DNA of 32,000 bases from Candidatus Saccharimonadota bacterium (GTDB lineage: Bacteria; Bacteroidota; Bacteroidia; Flavobacteriales; Blattabacteriaceae), in NCBI GenBank assembly GCA_029851085.1, contig CP100318.1, positions 270,001 to 302,000 of the forward strand, given 5' to 3'. Position 1 is the first letter of the stretch. Each line of letters opens with the position of its first letter. Under the pieces are notes generated by a model. The model was not told the origin of the DNA. It ran no database searches and worked only from the letters and a program-made list of their open reading frames with translations. Shown one piece after another: positions 962 through 28,194 of the stretch. Both the position numbers and the translations under genes were made by a program.

Positions 962-1062
962 AATAATAAATAAAAGTATAATAAATAATAATTATAAAAA
1001 AATAAAATGACAAAAAGTCCTTTTATATTAATGGCATGATGATTGAATAATAACGATTCTTA

Positions 1063-1106
1063 AATGCTACAAGATTATGTAGTTAATGCTACAAGATTAT
1101 GTAGTT
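1063..1106. repeat. Exact 22-bp tandem duplication (AATGCTACAAGATTATGTAGTT x2) in the rplM/dnaK divergent intergenic region
   Basis: Copy 1 at 1063-1084 and copy 2 at 1085-1106 are identical. Flanking bases differ (1062 a versus 1084 t). The repeat ends 32 bp before the dnaK ATG. Confidence 0.95.
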
Positions 1107-1138
1107 TTAAAAAATTGAAATAAATAAATATAATAAAT

Positions 1139-3052
1139 ATGAGTAAAATTATAGGTATAGATTTAGGTACTACTAATTCATGTGTTGCTATAATAGATGG
1201 AAAAGAGCCAAATGTTATACCTAATTCAGAAGGAAAGAGAACAACACCTTCTATTGTAGCTTTTGTAGAAGGGGGTGAAAGAAAAATTGGTGATCCTGCT
1301 AAACGTCAAGCGGTTACTAACCCCCAAAAAACTATTTTTTCTATTAAACGTTTTATGGGAAGAAAATTTTCTGAAGTTAATGAAGAAATTAAAAATGTGC
1401 CTTATAAAGTAATAAAAGGGAGTAATGATACTCCTAGAGTTAGTATTGATGGAAAATTATATTCTCCTCAAGAAATATCAGCTATGATACTTCAAAAAAT
1501 GAAAAAAACAGCTGAAGATTATATAGGATATAATATAAATAGTGCAGTAATTACTGTTCCTGCATATTTTAATGATGCCCAAAGACAAGCTACTAAAGAA
1601 GCTGGAGAAATAGCTGGATTAAAAGTTGAACGTATTATTAATGAACCTACTGCAGCGGCATTAGCTTATGGTTTAGATAAAAGTAAAAAATCTAAAAAAA
1701 TAGTGGTATATGATTTAGGAGGAGGAACTTTTGATATTTCAATATTAGAATTAGCTGATGGTGTTTTTGAAGTACTTTCAACTAATGGAGATACACATTT
1801 AGGAGGTGATGATTTTGATAGTATTATTATTAATTGGTTATCTACGATATTTAAAAATGAAGAAGGTATAGATCTTTGTAAAGATCCTATGGCACATCAA
1901 CGTTTAAAAGAAGCTGCAGAAAAAGCAAAAATAGAATTATCCTCAAGTATGCAAACTGAAATTAATTTACCTTATATTACTGCAACAGCTTCTGGTCCTA
2001 AACATTTAATACAAACACTAACAAGAGCAAAATTTGAACAATTATCTGAAAAATTAATTAATCGTTCTATTGCTCCTTGCAAACAAGCTTTAGAATCTTC
2101 AGGATTAAAATCTAAAGATATTGATGAAGTAATTTTAGTAGGTGGTTCTACACGTATTCCTAAAATACAACAAGAAGTAGAAAAATTTTTTGGTAAAAAA
2201 CCATCTAAAGGAGTAAATCCAGATGAAGTAGTAGCTATTGGTGCAGCTATTCAAGGAGGTGTATTGACTGGTGATGTAAAAGATGTACTTTTATTAGATG
2301 TTACTCCATTATCTTTAGGAATAGAAACTTTGGGAGGAGTTTTTACTAAATTAATAGAATCTAATACAACTATTCCTACAAAAAAATCAGAATTATTTTC
2401 TACTGCTACAGATAATCAACCAGCTGTCACTATACGTGTAGGACAAGGTGAACGTTCTATGTTTAAGGATAATAAAGAAATTGGACGTTTTGATTTAATA
2501 GATATTCCAACTGCTCCAAGAGGAACTCCTCAAATTGAAGTAACTTTTGATATTGATGCTAATGGTATATTAAATGTTTCTGCTAAAGATAAAAAAACAG
2601 GAAAAGAACAATCTATTAGGATAGAAGCTTCATCTGGGTTAAGTCAAGAAGAAATTGAAAAAATGAAACTAGAAGCTCAGGAAAATGCTGATAAAGATAA
2701 AAAAATAAAAGAAGAAATTGACAAATTAAATGCTACTGATAATTTAATTTTTAATAGTGAAAAACAATTAAAAGAATATGGAGATAAAATTTCAGATAAA
2801 AATAAAAAAAATATTGAAGAATCAATAAAAAAACTTAAATCTGCATATAATGATAAAAATTTATCTATGATAGATGAAGCAACCAAAGAAGTTAATGAAG
2901 CCTTTTCAAATGCTTATAAAGAAATTTCTGCAGTTAAAGAAAAAGAAAAAAATGAAATAAATTCTTCAAAAGAAACAACATCTAAAAATAATTCTAAATC
3001 ATCAGAAAAAAATGAAAATATACAAGATGTTGATTTTGAAGAAGTTAAATAG
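1139..3052 (+). CDS. dnaK: Chaperone DnaK (Hsp70)
   Basis: 637 aa. Contains [23 protein letters not shown] and [14 protein letters not shown] Hsp70 signatures. C-terminus is DVDFEEVK. Confidence 0.98.
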
Positions 3053-3067
3053 TTAAATAGTTTAAAT

Positions 3068-3107
3068 AAACAACAAATACATAAAAATATTTATGTATTT
3101 GTTGTTT
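3068..3107. terminator. Perfect 18-bp-stem hairpin between convergent dnaK and the dnaB remnant; candidate bidirectional intrinsic terminator
   Basis: Left arm AAACAACAAATACATAAA at 3068-3085, loop AATA, right arm TTTATGTATTTGTTGTTT at 3090-3107. Starts 16 nt after the dnaK stop. Confidence 0.6.
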
Positions 3108-3950
3108 TAAATATTTAAAAATTGGGCTTTTTCTTTAATAAAACGTAAACGAATATTATCTAATTTTCCATTACGATGTTTAGCAATAATTATTTCAGAT
3201 TGATCTTTTCCAGTTATTGATTATTCCAAGTATTAAAACCATAATATTCAGGTATATAAAAACAATATCAGCATCTTGTTCAATTGCACCTATCGTAAAT
3301 CAGATAATAATTGCCGTTTATTACCTAACCTAATTTCTACATAACGAGATAATTTAGATATAGCAATTATAGGAATATAATAATAAGTTCTTTTGCAATA
3401 GATTTAAAATAAATTATTGATATTTCTTGTTCACGATTAATAGTATTTTTATTTACAGTAATTAATTGTAGATAATCAATCATAATAATACGTATTTTTT
3501 TATTTTTTGATTAAGTATATACCATTCTGAATCAGATAAATTAGCTTGTTTTAATTTATTAATTGATATATCAGTTTCATATGCAATTAATCTATTAATT
3601 GTATAGAATACATTTCTAATGAAAAAAAAGCTATAGGTATACAGAATTATCGATAATATAAATGCTGTTTTACCCATTCCAGTACGTGCTTACAATATAA
3701 TTAAGTCAGAATTTTTCCAACCAGAAGTAATTTCATCTATTTTAAAAAATCCATAAGGTATTTGATATTGTATATAAATCTATAGGTTCAGAATTATTAA
3801 GAATAAAAGTTTTTGTATAACTATATAAATTTCTTTATGTTTTATATTATAAAACATTTCTGTAGATAATATAATCCTTTTTGATCAATCATTATAGCAC
3901 ATAAAACAATTTATTATAATGCTTTGGTAGGTATTTTTTTATCAATTGTA
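3107..3950 (-). pseudogene. dnaB: Replicative DNA helicase DnaB, eroded pseudogene (multiple frameshifts, in-frame stops, internal deletion, no start codon)
   Basis: The reverse strand shows DnaB motifs split over all three frames. Examples: IPYGFFKIDEITSGWKNSDLIIL-TAA-ARTGMGKTAF (Walker A; in-frame stop at 3690-3692), IMIDYLQLITVNKNTINREQEISIIYFKSIAKEL, IPIIAISKLSRYVEIRLGNKRQLLSDLR, GAIEQDADIVFIY, and EIIIAKHRNGKLDNIRLRFIKEKAQF followed by a stop at 3107-3109. Track ORF 3480..3677 is just the longest surviving fragment. Confidence 0.9.
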
Positions 3951-3996
3951 AAATCGTTATTAAGAATATAAGATATTTAATAAAATTTAAAATTAT

Positions 3997-4782
3997 ATGT
4001 ATTCTATTTATTCATTAGAAGAAATTGAAATTATTAAAAAAAGTGCATTATTAACATCAAAAACATTGGGTATTTTAGCTAAAGAAATAAAACCGGGTAT
4101 TAATACTTTATATTTGGATAAATTGGCAAAAGAATTTATTTATGATAATGGTGGTAGTTCAGCATTTTTAGGATTATATGATTTTCCTAATACTATTTGC
4201 ATATCTATTAATGAACAAGTAGTACATGGAATTCCAAAAAATAATGTTTATTTATATGATGGAGATATTATTTCTATAGATTGTGGAGTAAAAATGAATG
4301 GATATTGTGGAGATCAAGCATATACTTTTGAAGTAGGTGAAATAAATTACAAAAAAAAAAAATTATTACAAATAACTAAAGAATCTTTATATTTAGGAAT
4401 AAAAGAATGTAAAAAAGGACATAGTATAGGACATATTGGTTTTACTATTCAAAACCATGTAGAAAAATATGGATATAACATAGTTAAAGAATTTGTTGGA
4501 CATGGGTTAGGACGTAATATACATGAAAATCCTAAAATACCTAATTATGGAAAAAAAGGTGATGGTGATCTTTTAAAGGAAGGAATGGTTTTATCTATAG
4601 AACCAATGGTTAATATGGGAACTGATAAAATCCAATTTGATAAAGATGGTTGGACAATTTATACGTTTGATAAACAACCTTCAGCTCATTTTGAGCATAA
4701 TATAGCAATTATTAATGGAAAAGCTTCTTTACTATCTACTTTTAAATATATTTATAAATCTTTAAAAATAAAAACAAAATAA
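3997..4782 (+). CDS. map: Methionine aminopeptidase, type I
   Basis: 261 aa. Metal-ligand contexts are present: DGDIISIDCG, CGDQAYTF, FVGHGLG, LSIEPM, HFEHN. Confidence 0.95.
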   Translation: MYSIYSLEEIEIIKKSALLTSKTLGILAKEIKPGINTLYLDKLAKEFIYDNGGSSAFLGLYDFPNTICISINEQVVHGIPKNNVYLYDGDIISIDCGVKMNGYCGDQAYTFEVGEINYKKKKLLQITKESLYLGIKECKKGHSIGHIGFTIQNHVEKYGYNIVKEFVGHGLGRNIHENPKIPNYGKKGDGDLLKEGMVLSIEPMVNMGTDKIQFDKDGWTIYTFDKQPSAHFEHNIAIINGKASLLSTFKYIYKSLKIKTK

Positions 4783-4794
4783 TATTAATAATTA

Positions 4795-5178
4795 ATGCCA
4801 ACTATTCAACAATTAATTAGAAAAGGAAGAATTTCAATTAAAAAAACTAGTAAATCAGCTATATTAAATTCTTGTCCTCAAAAAAGAGGTGTATGTACAC
4901 GTGTATATACTACTACTCCTAAAAAACCTAATTCTGCTATGCGTAAAGTTTGTAGAGTACGTTTAACTAATGGAAAAGAAATAATTGCTTATATACGTGG
5001 TGAAGGTCATAATCTTCAAGAACATTCAATCGTATGTGTTGCAGGAGGAAAAATTGCTAGAGATCTTTCAGGAGTACGTGCTCATGTAGAACGTGGATGT
5101 AGAGATACTGCTGGAGTTGTGGGTCGTATGAAAAGTAGAAGTAAATATGGTACTAAAAAAAGTTCTAAAAATAAATAA
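4795..5178 (+). CDS. rpsL: 30S ribosomal protein S12 (uS12), with atypical C-terminal third
   Basis: 127 aa. [34 protein letters not shown] is canonical. Residues 81-103 ([23 protein letters not shown]) deviate from the near-invariant [22 protein letters not shown]. Confidence 0.95.
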
Positions 5179-21209: not shown

Positions 21210-21211
21210 AA

Positions 21212-21316
21212 AGAGGCAAGTCATATGCCACACATCGCTATAACTACCTTACCTTTGCTGTGTTCCCACCCTGGAGGGATTTAGCATTAGCTGATTGTGC
21301 CAAAAAACTTACCTCT
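21212..21316 (-). ncRNA. ffs: Signal recognition particle RNA (small bacterial 4.5S type)
   Basis: Reverse strand reads 5'-AGAGGUAAGU...CCAGG-GUG-GGAA-CAC-AGCA...ACUUGCCUCU-3'. Compare the E. coli domain IV core AGG-UCC-GGAA-GGA-AGCA (GNRA tetraloop at 21263-21266). The 5' and 3' ends form a 10-bp terminal helix (AGAGGUAAGU/ACUUGCCUCU, one G-U pair). The 105-nt length fits 4.5S RNA. Locally G+C-richer than the flanks. Confidence 0.7.
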
Positions 21317-21440
21317 ATTCTATCACAAATATAGAAAAATATTATTAATAATGAAAATTACAATAATAGGAGAAACTTACCTCTATTCTATCACAAATAT
21401 AGAAAAATATTATTAATAATGAAAATTACAATAATAGGAG
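21305..21440. repeat. Exact 68-bp tandem duplication covering the ffs 5' end, the ffs-mdh spacer and the first 22 nt of mdh
   Basis: 21305-21372 and 21373-21440 are identical base for base; flanking bases differ. The copy-1 ATG at 21351 opens the short ORF MKITIIGETYLYSITNIEKYY, with its TAA stop at 21414-21416. Confidence 0.97.
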
Positions 21441-24837: not shown

Positions 24838-26553
24838 ATGCATAAAAAAATTATAAAATTGCGAAAAGAAATTTCGAAACATAATTATAAATATTATATA
24901 TCTAATAATCCTGAAATATCAGATTATGAATTTGATATGAAATTAAAAGAATTAGAGAAACTTGAAAATGAATATAATGATTTAACTTATACTACTAAAA
25001 AAATTGGTGAAGATGTTATTAAATGTTTTCCTATTGTAAATCATCGTTATCCAATGTATTCATTAAATAATGTTTATAGTAAACAAGAGGTAATTGATTG
25101 GGAAACACGTATAAAAAAACATTTAAAATCTTCATTAGAATATGTATGTGAATTAAAATATGATGGAATATCTATAAGTTTACATTATGAAAATGGATAT
25201 TTAATTAGTGCTTTAACTCGTGGAGATGGTATTCATGGAAATGAAATAATTGATAATATACGGATTATAAATTCAATTCCATTAAAACTAAAAGGTAATT
25301 ATCCTTATGATATTGAGGTTCGTGCTGAAATTATTCTACCTTTAATAGAATTTAAAAAAATTAATCAAGAACGTATAAAAAAAGGAAAGAAACCTTATGT
25401 TAATCCTCGTAATACAGTTAATGGTTTATTAAAACAAAAAAATAAAAATTATTTAGAATGTTTGGAATGTTTTGTTTATTCTATTATTAGTAATAATAAT
25501 TATAATAATCAATATTATAATTTAATGTATGCACGTGAGTGGGGATTTAAAGTTCCTGAAAGTGTTAATATTTGTAAATCAATTACAAGTATTTTTAATT
25601 ATATTGAATATTGGAATTTTGCTAGATATAATTTACAATATAATATTGATGGAATTGTTATAAAGGTTAATAATTATCATCAACAAGCAATATTAGGTTA
25701 TACCTCTAAATATCCACGTTGGGCTATTGCTTATAAATTCAAATCACAAAGAGTAATAACGCAAATTTTAAATGTTACTTTTGAAGTAGGACGTACTGGA
25801 GTAGTTACTCCTGTGGCAGAACTTAAACCTATTTTTTTTGATGGAACAACTGTTAAACGAGCTTCATTATATAATGAAGATATTATAAATAAATTAGATA
25901 TTTATAAGTCTGATTTTGTTATTATAGAAAAAGGTGGAAATATTATTCCTAAAATAATAGGCGTTGATTTTACTAAACGTACTACTAATAATAAGATTAA
26001 ATTTATAAATATATGTCCTGATTGTAATACATTTTTAATTAAAAAAAATAATATATATTACTGTCCTAATGAAATTGGTTGTTATTCACAAATAATAGAA
26101 AAAATAAATCATTTTGTTAGTAGAAAAGCTATGAATATTTACAATATAGGTAGTAATACTATTAAACAGTTATTTAACGCTAAATTATTACATACAATTG
26201 CAGATTTATATACTTTAAAAGTAAAGGATATAATGAATATAATGCATATATCAGAAAATAATGCACAAAATATTATAGAAGAAATAGAAAAATCGAAAAA
26301 AAATCCTTTTTATAAAGTTTTATATGCATTATGTATTCCTAATGTTGGAGAATATATAGCTAAAAAACTCACACATATATTTTTTAATATTGATGAATTA
26401 ATATTTGCTGATTACGATAAATTAAAAAATATTAACAATATAGGAAATAAAATTATTTTTTCTTTAAAAGAATATTTTTCAAAAGATTATAACATATTAA
26501 TTATTAATAAACTTAAAAAAAATGGTATAAAATTAAAAAAAAATGATATTTGA
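24838..26553 (+). CDS. ligA: NAD-dependent DNA ligase LigA (short form, apparently without a BRCT domain)
   Basis: 571 aa. Adenylation motif CELKYDGISISL, OB-fold region, four-Cys zinc finger CPDC...CPNEIGC and HhH repeats (IPNVGEYIAKKL, INNIGNKII). The protein ends right after the HhH region. Confidence 0.93.
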   Translation: MHKKIIKLRKEISKHNYKYYISNNPEISDYEFDMKLKELEKLENEYNDLTYTTKKIGEDVIKCFPIVNHRYPMYSLNNVYSKQEVIDWETRIKKHLKSSLEYVCELKYDGISISLHYENGYLISALTRGDGIHGNEIIDNIRIINSIPLKLKGNYPYDIEVRAEIILPLIEFKKINQERIKKGKKPYVNPRNTVNGLLKQKNKNYLECLECFVYSIISNNNYNNQYYNLMYAREWGFKVPESVNICKSITSIFNYIEYWNFARYNLQYNIDGIVIKVNNYHQQAILGYTSKYPRWAIAYKFKSQRVITQILNVTFEVGRTGVVTPVAELKPIFFDGTTVKRASLYNEDIINKLDIYKSDFVIIEKGGNIIPKIIGVDFTKRTTNNKIKFINICPDCNTFLIKKNNIYYCPNEIGCYSQIIEKINHFVSRKAMNIYNIGSNTIKQLFNAKLLHTIADLYTLKVKDIMNIMHISENNAQNIIEEIEKSKKNPFYKVLYALCIPNVGEYIAKKLTHIFFNIDELIFADYDKLKNINNIGNKIIFSLKEYFSKDYNILIINKLKKNGIKLKKNDI

Positions 26554-27685
26554 TATTATTTATTTAGATAAATATTATGATACGTTTAAAGAACATACAA
26601 TTACTTCTAGAATATTTAGACATTCTGAATTATTAATACAATTAGAAAAATATAATAATAAATGTATTATTGATTTAATAGGACATTCTATAGAAAAAAG
26701 AGAAATTTATAAAATCCAATTGGGTGAAGGAACAAAAAAAATAATGATATGGTCTCAAATGCATGGAAATGAAACTACAGGTACCATAGCTATGTTTGAT
26801 GTTTTACGTTATCTTAACGAGGATAACCCATTTACTAACTTTTTAAAAAAAAAGTTGAATATTTCATATATTCCAATACTTAATCCTGATGGATCAGAAA
26901 TATTTAAACGTAATAATGCAATAGATATTGATTTAAATAGAGATGCAATAGCTTTAAAGTCTCCTGAAATTAATATATTATTTAATAATATTAAATCTTT
27001 AACTCCTGATATTCTTTTTAATTTACATGATCAAAAAAGCATATATAATGTAGGTGATACACATAATCCGGCAGTATTATCTTTTTTAGCTCCTTCTGAG
27101 GATAAAAAACGTGCTATAACAGATTATAGAAAAAAAACTATGAATATAATAAATTTTATTGAAAAAAACCTTAAAATTATTTTGCCAGGTATGATAGGTA
27201 GATATTATGATAAATTTTATCCTACAGCTACAGGAGATAATCTTCAAAGAATGGGATATCCATGTGTATTATTTGAGGCTGGATATTATTTAAATGATTT
27301 GAAAAAAATTAAAGTTAGAAAATATAATGCACTTGCAATTTTATCCGGTTTGTTTTATTTAGCTAATGAAGAAAATATTGAACAAGATTATAGATATTAT
27401 TTTTCTATTCCAGAAAATAGCAAAAATATTATTGATTTAATTTATAAAAATGTAAAAATTAGAAAAAAAGGAATGGAATTTTATGTAGATATTGGTATTA
27501 TGTATGAAGAAAAATATAATATTTACACAAATACTATTGAATTTATTCCTAAAATAATTGAAATAGGTGATCTAAATCATTATTTTTATAGAAATGAGGT
27601 AAAAGCTTATGGAAAAAATTATATTGGAAAATATGGTAAAACTTATCCTAACATAGGTGAATGTGCTAATTTCAAACTTATTTAA
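26543..27685 (+). CDS. M14-family zinc carboxypeptidase-like protein
   Basis: 380 aa. WSQMHGNETTG (HxxE zinc motif), NPDG, IDLNRD and FNLHDQ (third zinc-ligand context) are arranged as in M14 peptidases. Overlaps the ligA end by 11 nt. Confidence 0.8.
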   Translation: MIFDIIYLDKYYDTFKEHTITSRIFRHSELLIQLEKYNNKCIIDLIGHSIEKREIYKIQLGEGTKKIMIWSQMHGNETTGTIAMFDVLRYLNEDNPFTNFLKKKLNISYIPILNPDGSEIFKRNNAIDIDLNRDAIALKSPEINILFNNIKSLTPDILFNLHDQKSIYNVGDTHNPAVLSFLAPSEDKKRAITDYRKKTMNIINFIEKNLKIILPGMIGRYYDKFYPTATGDNLQRMGYPCVLFEAGYYLNDLKKIKVRKYNALAILSGLFYLANEENIEQDYRYYFSIPENSKNIIDLIYKNVKIRKKGMEFYVDIGIMYEEKYNIYTNTIEFIPKIIEIGDLNHYFYRNEVKAYGKNYIGKYGKTYPNIGECANFKLI

Positions 27686-27837: not shown

Positions 27838-28194
27838 TTAAAATTGTATAATACTTTTTATTAAAGCTATTTTATTTTGATTTTCTATTTTAATAATAAA
27901 AGTTTTTCCAGATTTATTTTCTTTATATAAAATATAATATATGGGAAAAGGTTTTCTTCTAATTTTACTTTTATTAAAATCAACTTTACCATTTATTAAA
28001 AGTTTTTTAATATATTCTATATTATAGATAGAACATGTATCACAATTATTATCAAATAATAATTGTTTTCGTATTATATTACATAATACTCTGTAATTAG
28101 GCAAATAACATGAATATAAATTCATTCTATTGCATAGAATTATACCTAATAAAATTCCAACTAAAAAATATATAAAACGTTGATAAAAATTCAT
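27838..28194 (-). CDS. Small hypothetical protein with an N-terminal transmembrane helix
   Basis: 118 aa. Hydrophobic FIYFLVGILLGIILC, then CYLPNYRVL...NGKVDFNKSKIRRKPFPIY. It resembles, from memory only, a small conserved flavobacterial protein family (possibly DUF4258). Tightly coupled to tsaE (4-nt overlap) and rpmH. Confidence 0.6.
   Translation of the reverse strand: MNFYQRFIYFLVGILLGIILCNRMNLYSCYLPNYRVLCNIIRKQLLFDNNCDTCSIYNIEYIKKLLINGKVDFNKSKIRRKPFPIYYILYKENKSGKTFIIKIENQNKIALIKSIIQF

Follow-up and report, generated by a model that had tools for sequence, protein, structure and literature searches.

The dnaK-map interval of Bostrichicola strain LBRU

The DNA analysed here, a stretch of 32,000 nucleotides (nt) called the window, lies in CP100318, the genome of Candidatus Bostrichicola ureolyticus strain LBRU (host Lyctus brunneus, 55x coverage; Kiefer et al. 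2023, PMC10284843, Supplementary Table 2). This flavobacterial, urea-recycling co-symbiont of a powder-post beetle has a genome of 337,436 bp, and the Map, S12 and L13 products of the window match exactly WGH27807.1, WGH27808.1 and WGH27805.1 of B. ureolyticus. The subject of this work is the interval between dnaK and map, where the remains of dnaB, the replicative helicase gene, are found on the minus strand at 3107-3946. Four other strains were used for comparison: LCAV (CP100320, host L. cavicollis, 324 kb), LAFR (JAMYEW, a draft, host L. africanus), DMIN (CP100321, host Dinoderus minutus, 346 kb) and DPOR (CP100319, host D. porcellus, 345 kb) (PMC10284843).

The two genes flanking the interval are intact. 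Upstream, dnaK (1139-3052, plus strand) is an open reading frame (ORF) with a syntenic HSP70 gene in LCAV, DPOR and DMIN, and a ratio of non-synonymous to synonymous divergence (dN/dS, or omega) of 0.35 relative to DPOR. Downstream, map (3997-4782, plus strand) encodes the methionine aminopeptidase WGH27807.1, which matches Pfam Peptidase_M24 with an E-value of 3.5e-45. The gap that separates them in LBRU is 944 nt long, and the longest ORFs inside it are of 65 and 38 amino acids (aa). Judging by the consecutive accession numbers, the LBRU annotation seems to have a single protein between L13 and Map, presumably DnaK; the DPOR and DMIN annotations place a DnaB protein directly before Map. A scan of our genome collection with DnaK returned only free-living Flavobacteriales, with at most 76% identity. 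An exact look-up of the DnaK of the window found no match, probably owing to a different annotated start; those of Map and of the 65-aa ORF did give matches.

The assignment of the interval to dnaB is based on homology and on orthologous position. All the DnaB peptide motifs listed in the original prediction were recovered at their places by six-frame translation, scattered over the three frames of the minus strand: KIPTKAL at 3917-3937 (frame 1), EMFYNIKHKEIY at 3825-3860 (frame 0), NNSEPIDLYTIS at 3763-3798 (frame 2), IPYGFFKIDEITSGWKNSDLIIL at 3693-3761 followed by a TAA codon (3690-3692) and by ARTGMGKT (3666-3689), then IIMIDYLQL at 3463-3489 and EIIIAKHRNG at 3167-3196. Joining the fragments across frames yields a pseudo-protein of 279 aa, with Pfam E-values of 6.7e-56 for DnaB_C and 4.3e-5 for the DnaB N-terminal domain; these scores are far above chance. 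The best protein match of the pseudo-protein is the B. ureolyticus DnaB of DPOR (69% identity, E=1e-98), and the next matches do not exceed 58%.

To compare the relic with the intact DPOR and DMIN genes, MAFFT was run with a gap-tolerant setting, in 4- and 5-way alignments. A first global MAFFT alignment misplaced the N-terminal block, and was dropped in favour of the gap-tolerant one. Across 730 aligned columns, the relic DNA is ∼91% identical to the intact orthologue. Its terminal stop (3107-3109) occupies the same position as in the intact Dinoderus genes, and the order dnaK-dnaB-map is found in four strains. From the position of the ancestral start codon to the conserved ancestral stop, 840 nt are left of a gene of ∼1335 nt. 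A remnant of ∼0.85 kb had been predicted, which is correct, but the intact size of 1.4-1.5 kb given alongside was too large for this clade, where intact orthologues measure 1329-1341 nt, meaning that the relic keeps ∼63% of the gene.

The original prediction had suggested a comparison with the orthologous dnaK-map locus of related strains. It revealed intact genes in the two Dinoderus strains and relics in LCAV and LAFR. Both DPOR (WGH27314.1, 442 aa) and DMIN (WGH26289.1, 446 aa) carry an intact dnaB in the order dnaK-dnaB-map-rpsL-rpsG-fusA. In the DPOR protein, PF00772 (residues 8-108) and PF03796 (185-440) are complete, and over its full length the protein can be aligned to solved DnaB structures (for instance 2vye, E=9e-107). 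Decay was also predicted to be specific to this gene, in a block where neighbours read cleanly, and this held over the region compared: the 23 other genes common to the window and the DPOR locus (rpsI through rpsN) are all intact in both. Another replication gene of the window, ligA, is intact as well. With the syntenic gene intact in two sister strains, and with lesions that recur in independent assemblies (see below), the call of an eroded dnaB pseudogene was upheld. We conclude with high confidence that positions 3107-3946, between dnaK and map, hold a dead, neutrally decaying relic of dnaB, most probably a single-copy gene.

Lesions of the relic and their reality

Alignment to the Dinoderus genes revealed 14 indels in the LBRU copy, 13 of them relative to both strains and one relative to DMIN only, and 11 of them frameshifting. 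Deletions measure 6, 6, 16, 347, 10, 10, 4, 94, 6, 4 and 7 nt, plus 1 nt relative to DMIN only, and there are two insertions of 5 nt each. Sizes thus range from 1 to 347 nt, with 510 nt deleted against 10 inserted. Through the deletions the gene has lost 38% of its coding sequence, and with it the linker helix and some of the RecA core. Ten frame changes are visible, arising from the 11 frameshifting indels, and at least 4 stops fall in the ancestral frame; the earlier estimate of at least 6 frame changes was therefore low.

The features below are all on the minus strand and are given from the start of the gene to its end. At the position of the ancestral start codon (3944-3946), ATG is replaced by ATT, as seen in the alignment columns around ACAATTGATAA versus AAAATGGATAA. 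The same change is found in LAFR, while LCAV keeps ATG. Two adjacent TAA stops follow in the ancestral frame at 3911-3916, within the N-terminal domain; they result from a GAA to TAA change and a 6-nt deletion, and the translation reads KIPTKAL-stop-stop-IVL. The remnant of the N-terminal domain (3763-3937, approximately the first 69 codons) is interrupted twice, at ∼3874 where 16 nt are deleted and at ∼3805 where 5 nt are inserted, and covers only positions 12-66 of the 103 of the PF00772 profile. Beside it lies the junction of the 347-nt deletion (∼3761/3762). Judged by the domain limits of the intact DPOR protein, residues ∼70-185 are lost with this deletion: the remainder of the N-terminal domain, the linker helix, and the beginning of the RecA-like domain. 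A large internal deletion had been placed near 3755-3765, in agreement with this junction; the alignment adds a second one, of 94 nt, at ∼3495.

Past the junction, the Walker A remnant ARTGMGKT comes after an in-frame TAA (3666-3692 together), where alignment indicates that TTT GCA became TTG TAA. The conserved proline of ARPGMGKT is a threonine in all three Lyctus strains; the DnaB of G. stearothermophilus has AARPSVGKT. Three frameshifting deletions (10, 10 and 4 nt) are clustered at 3601-3652 around an FSLEM motif that is itself intact (IAFFSLEM, 3611-3634). This motif had been called degraded and read as FFFIRN, in what was in fact the wrong frame. Next come the junction of the 94-nt deletion (∼3495) and the Walker B remnant IIMIDYLQL (3463-3495 for the two), DPOR residues ∼283-314, the strand and helix before Walker B, having been lost. 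The C-terminal remnants of the RecA core (3217-3411) contain a 6-nt deletion at ∼3411, a 5-nt insertion at ∼3383, deletions of 4 nt (∼3293), 7 nt (∼3261) and 1 nt (∼3220), and a TAA stop at 3217-3219, read as WNNQ-stop and created by the derived AATAATCAATAA that LBRU shares with LAFR. In a further frame, the last remnant (3110-3196) runs from EIIIAKHRNG to RLRFIKEKAQFLNI and includes the arginine-finger motif, as deduced from the alignment of the orthologue to IAKQRNG of PDB 2vye.

The Walker A, FSLEM, Walker B and arginine-finger (AKHRNG) motifs are therefore still legible, in differing frames (0, 2 and 1 for Walker A, Walker B and the arginine finger respectively). A functional DnaB would be read from a start codon as a single ORF of ∼440-470 aa, whereas the LBRU locus has ATT and the two short ORFs mentioned above. 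Neither the complete N-terminal domain nor the linker helix, involved in hexamer assembly and primase contact, is present, and the RecA-like C-terminal domain is not contiguous, its motifs lying in several frames. In position, in the ∼91% nucleotide identity of the retained blocks and in the place of the stop, the LBRU relic resembles the Dinoderus gene; it differs in having no start, 11 frameshifts, several stops and 38% of its length lost, where Dinoderus dnaB is a single uninterrupted ORF with complete domains and an omega of 0.33. As far as the sequence tells, no functional helicase is encodable at the LBRU locus.

Could the fragments nevertheless yield a working helicase, by programmed frameshifting, by transcriptional slippage, or as a split protein of several subunits? 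The four motifs are all still spelled, and poly(A) slippage rescues some endosymbiont genes. However, all eleven frameshifts, of varied sizes, would need to be corrected, and no correction restores the 510 nt that are physically gone. Lost with them are the linker helix, the greater part of the N-terminal domain and, from the RecA fold, a strand and a helix of the core. Moreover, the longest ORFs are very short, the three Lyctus strains keep different pieces of dnaB, and the relic evolves at the rate of a spacer (see below). We give practically no credit to this possibility. Reuse as an RNA gene left no sign either: when the whole window was scanned with Rfam, no RNA family was matched in the relic.

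Frameshifts and stops may also be produced by sequencing or assembly errors, such as homopolymer or long-read indels and mis-joins, in which case the real dnaB would be intact. With 55x, LBRU indeed has the lowest coverage among the complete Bostrichicola genomes (PMC10284843), and the assemblies of two L. brunneus libraries give different lengths for a poly(A) run in map (12 versus 14 A). Several observations speak against such errors. First, a single indel among the 14 is of one base; the others are of 4-347 nt, and none lies simply inside a homopolymer. Second, two Logan contigs from library SRR19201365 are 100% identical to window positions 2551-3905 and 3876-5160, and span the whole relic. 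From the other L. brunneus library, SRR19201357, one Logan contig covers 3624-4898, and with it the 5′ third of the relic; its sole difference from the window is the poly(A) length inside map. Third, the symbionts of two other host species, sequenced at 693x and 338x (PMC10284843), show independent decay of the same gene. Finally, substitutions are 5-9 times as frequent in the relic as in the flanking genes. The chance that errors account for the relic is negligible. As expected of a unitary pseudogene, multiple disabling lesions are real in the DNA, given the indels and stops described above, the assemblies, and the agreement of the second library over 3624-3996.

The poly(A) run of map (window 4351-4362) varies in length between assemblies. 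It has 12 A in the window and in the SRR19201365 Logan contig, 11 in LCAV, and 14 in the SRR19201357 Logan contig, where map is split into ORFs of 126 and 58 aa. In a DPOR Logan contig map is also split, and this contig differs from CP100319 by three gaps. The length difference is either a homopolymer sequencing error or real heterogeneity, of a kind that slippage could rescue. The annotated Map protein is longest in LCAV (270 aa), followed by LBRU (261 aa) and by DPOR and DMIN (256 aa each), and the map-rpsL spacer measures 213 nt in LCAV versus 12 nt in LBRU (window 4783-4794); this strain-variable 3′ end of map is possibly linked to the poly(A) run.

Relics of the other Lyctus strains and the timing of the loss

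The relics of the three Lyctus strains are at different stages. In LCAV, the dnaK-map gap of 904 nt contains only a 111-aa DnaB_C ORF, within a relic of ∼0.8 kb that has accumulated 15 indels. The LAFR relic, of ∼0.5 kb or less, is found within the 527 nt upstream of map as short dnaB scraps that derive from the start of the gene, its Walker A region, its middle and its C-terminus. One indel only is common to LBRU and LCAV, an in-frame 6-nt deletion at codons 3-4, which LAFR also has; the other ∼25 indels are not shared between LBRU and LCAV. Missense changes common to the three strains are IPSGF to IPYGF and the Walker A proline to threonine. Besides these, LBRU and LAFR share ATG to ATT and AATAATCAATAA, while LCAV retains ATG and has the second site deleted.

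Divergence between relics was then compared to that of their surroundings. Between LBRU and LCAV, the p-distance is 7.2% for the dnaB relic (29/405), versus 1.0% for dnaK, 1.5% for map and 0.8% for fusA, and 5.0% (7/141) for the rplM-dnaK spacer. With the three Lyctus strains together, 0-1 differing sites are found in the first 322 nt of map, versus 27-47 in the 242 relic columns that they share. Relic divergence at the rate of a spacer, next to flanks at ∼1%, means that the relic has evolved like a spacer since the Lyctus strains split. In composition, the relic has 21.4% G+C versus 25.0% for the corresponding columns of the intact genes, with 38 substitutions from GC to AT against 11 from AT to GC. 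It therefore evolves as expected of a unitary pseudogene, at a neutral rate and with AT- and deletion-biased change.

An NG86 estimate between the LBRU and LCAV relics gave an omega of 6.7. This value was not read as a sign of positive selection: in such an AT-rich genome synonymous changes mostly oppose the mutational bias, which depresses dS, so that the p-distance relative to the spacer was taken as the fairer test.

The rplM-dnaK spacer itself varies in length, from ∼800 nt in DPOR and 468 nt in DMIN to 177 nt in LBRU (window 962-1138) and 152 nt in LCAV. No convincing ORF was seen in the long DPOR spacer, and this spacer may represent the remains of another gene, more eroded in the Lyctus strains.

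Before the loss, purifying selection seems to have acted normally on dnaB over most of the long Lyctus-Dinoderus branch. Once private changes are subtracted, this branch has a dN of ∼0.048 and a dS of ∼0.14 (omega ∼0.34). Between DPOR and DMIN, dnaB has an omega of 0.33, and the neighbouring genes 0.14-0.44. From these comparisons we infer that dnaB ceased to be under selection around the base of the Lyctus-associated clade.

The original prediction took the high residual similarity as a sign of fairly recent inactivation, which would make it specific to the L. brunneus strain. Two facts favour a recent event, the ∼91% identity of the retained segments to the intact orthologues and the many motifs still readable in the LBRU relic. 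But LCAV and LAFR carry dnaB relics too, and those of LBRU and LCAV have diverged at 7.2% of sites and by ∼25 indels that are not shared, when the flanks differ by ∼1%. The 91% identity comes from divergence between strains being low in general: relative to DPOR, dnaK and map show about the same similarity as the relic. A recent, strain-specific loss is thus highly improbable, and the dating of the original prediction has to be revised: the presence of differing relics in all three Lyctus strains, diverged at the rate of a spacer, places the death of dnaB at or before the radiation of the Lyctus symbionts. A single ancestral inactivation, by a missense or regulatory change, would account for this, and the data fit equally well with three parallel losses shortly after the split.

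Some points weigh against a single-copy gene that died once, in the ancestor of the Lyctus strains. No inactivating lesion is common to the three strains, which share only the in-frame 6-nt deletion and missense changes. The ATG to ATT change and the CAATAA stop are common to LBRU and LAFR and not found in LCAV. The first 322 nt of map contain one informative site, whose derived base LBRU and LCAV share, which would leave LAFR outside; if strains are grouped in this way, the sharing of ATT and CAATAA would imply homoplasy or reversion. Finally, the absence of a paralogue concerns annotated or called proteins only, and the DNA read amounts to 32 kb of the 337 kb.

A relative-rate test was run on DnaK with five outgroups. 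Unique changes numbered 19-24 in Lyctus versus 9-18, and 19 of the 20 comparisons were non-significant (lowest p = 0.04), so that in DnaK this test provides no usable evidence for or against an acceleration after dnaB loss.

Replication with a dead dnaB

DnaB is regarded as indispensable for bacterial chromosome replication. Three ways out had been proposed in the original prediction, namely an intact copy elsewhere, help from a host or co-symbiont, or a non-canonical replication mode. Of these, neither the second copy nor help from the co-symbiont appears likely.

An intact second dnaB, duplicated, relocated or horizontally acquired, could in principle lie elsewhere in the LBRU chromosome next to a genuine pseudogene, since only 32 kb of the 337-kb genome were read at the DNA level. 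To our knowledge, gene duplication or acquisition is essentially unheard of in symbiont genomes of such size. No second Bostrichicola DnaB was found among the NCBI proteins of LBRU and the gene calls of the L. brunneus Logan assemblies, other matches having at most 58% identity. When the protein collection was searched with the relic, the DPOR/DMIN cluster came out at 69%, followed by unrelated flavobacterial DnaBs at 58% or less, and this Bostrichicola cluster has two members only, DPOR and DMIN. In addition, Bostrichicola genomes are highly syntenic, and LBRU has fewer predicted proteins than the Dinoderus strains (324, versus 334 in DPOR and 336 in DMIN; PMC10284843). On the basis of these annotated and called proteins, we consider a second copy very unlikely. 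Rescue by the co-symbiont Shikimatogenerans was also set aside, because the two symbionts, Bostrichicola and Shikimatogenerans, occupy separate bacteriomes (PMC10284843).

With a dead and probably single-copy dnaB, the scenario we propose is as follows. The gene would have escaped selection near the base of the Lyctus-associated clade, and each Lyctus lineage would then have eroded it independently, by the deletion- and AT-biased mutation typical of such symbionts. As the symbionts are kept at high copy number (55-693x coverage) despite a dead dnaB, their chromosomes would be replicated without a DnaB of their own, as those of Walczuchella and of some Karelsulcia and Carsonella must be. Most likely, and this is speculative, unwinding is supplied by another symbiont-encoded helicase or by an imported host protein. 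The more specific idea that fork unwinding has been host-supplied through at least one host radiation, for instance by an imported organellar DnaB-like enzyme, is in our opinion unlikely. If true, it would amount to an organelle-like step in a beetle symbiont of 324-337 kb, dated by the Dinoderus/Lyctus contrast, and to a natural experiment for the idea, discussed below, of dnaB loss as a tipping point.

Loss of dnaB in symbionts is already documented, and Lyctus Bostrichicola adds a case that is clade-wide and unusually well staged. In Walczuchella, dnaB is absent, together with dnaG, from all seven genomes (281-309 kb), and an early loss of dnaB was proposed by the authors as the tipping point for genome degradation (PMC12188211; PMC3971599). 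Some Karelsulcia and Carsonella genomes (157-245 kb) also lack it (PMC12188211). Likewise, a preprint on small scale-insect Bacteroidota symbionts reports that helicase, primase and other replication genes are missing or pseudogenised in some of them, dnaB included as here (bioRxiv 10.1101/2025.10.31.685726). Its heat map of core genes includes four Bostrichicola genomes, with dnaE and rpoCD noted as the sole universal genes; the text makes no statement that Lyctus Bostrichicola are without dnaB, and the relic is not described there, nor are its lesions or timing. In the paper on the Bostrichicola genomes, the main text contains no mention of dnaB, of helicases or of pseudogenes, and says of both symbionts that they keep replication functions (PMC10284843).

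Walczuchella monophlebidarum, from giant scale insects, is a parallel: it is likewise an obligate flavobacterial symbiont, with a genome of ∼300 kb, that persists without dnaB and underwent the loss alongside further erosion. The difference is that dnaB is gone from all seven Walczuchella genomes, with no intact sister or series of relics described, whereas Bostrichicola offers an intact sister clade and three stages of decay, in Lyctus strain genomes (324-337 kb) that are slightly larger. Karelsulcia muelleri and Carsonella ruddii resemble Bostrichicola in that the loss is lineage-specific and other members retain the gene, intact Karelsulcia DnaBs being among our protein matches; they have far smaller, more reduced genomes and live in sap-feeding Hemiptera, while Bostrichicola is a beetle symbiont with a larger genome. 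In Bostrichicola, peptidoglycan (mur) genes are kept in the Dinoderus strains, and lost in part in LBRU and entirely in LCAV (PMC10284843), which fits with a more eroded Lyctus clade.

Each further lineage that survives without DnaB sharpens the question of how highly reduced symbionts replicate. Here, genomes of 324-337 kb exceed in size the dnaB-less genomes of the literature cited above (157-309 kb), and the Dinoderus sister clade, with its intact and constrained dnaB, provides a close control. The three independently eroded relics (∼840, ∼800 and at most ∼500 nt) make it possible to bracket when the gene was lost and to read the neutral spectrum of indels and substitutions directly. The case also offers an independent test of the Walczuchella hypothesis, in which early dnaB loss leads to accelerated pseudogenisation.

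The rest of the window is AT-rich (18-29% G+C per kb) and its housekeeping genes are tightly packed. Besides dnaK and map, they include rpsI, rplM, rpsL, rpsG, fusA, the S10-spc-alpha ribosomal operons, secY, infA, rpoA, rplQ, mdh, pdhA, the gene of the pyruvate dehydrogenase E2 subunit, ligA, tsaE, fabZ, efp, sucD and a peroxiredoxin gene, and the window ends inside a class I aminoacyl-tRNA synthetase gene (probably argS), whose start it contains. In the rplQ-mdh spacer, a G+C-rich island (21210-21321, minus strand) has a full-length match to the Bacteroidales small signal recognition particle RNA model (49.4 bits, E=3.6e-9). This score falls just short of the gathering score of 55.2, hence the match was missed by the default Rfam scan; the island is probably the ffs gene of the symbiont. 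Directly upstream of the mdh start, a direct repeat of ∼47 nt, AACTTACCTCTATTCTATCACAAATATAGAAAAATATTATTAATA, is present in two copies ∼20 nt apart (∼21310-21418, plus strand), which is unusual for so compact a genome. The intact ligA (24838-26553, plus strand) encodes 571 aa, and its match to LigA profiles ends at ∼580 of 652-664, so that the C-terminal (BRCT) part appears to be missing. An ORF of 380 aa (26543-27685, plus strand) has a weak partial match to Peptidase_M14 (E=4.4e-11, ∼100 residues), and another of 118 aa (27838-28194, minus strand) has no family match; both may be degenerating or fast-evolving genes.

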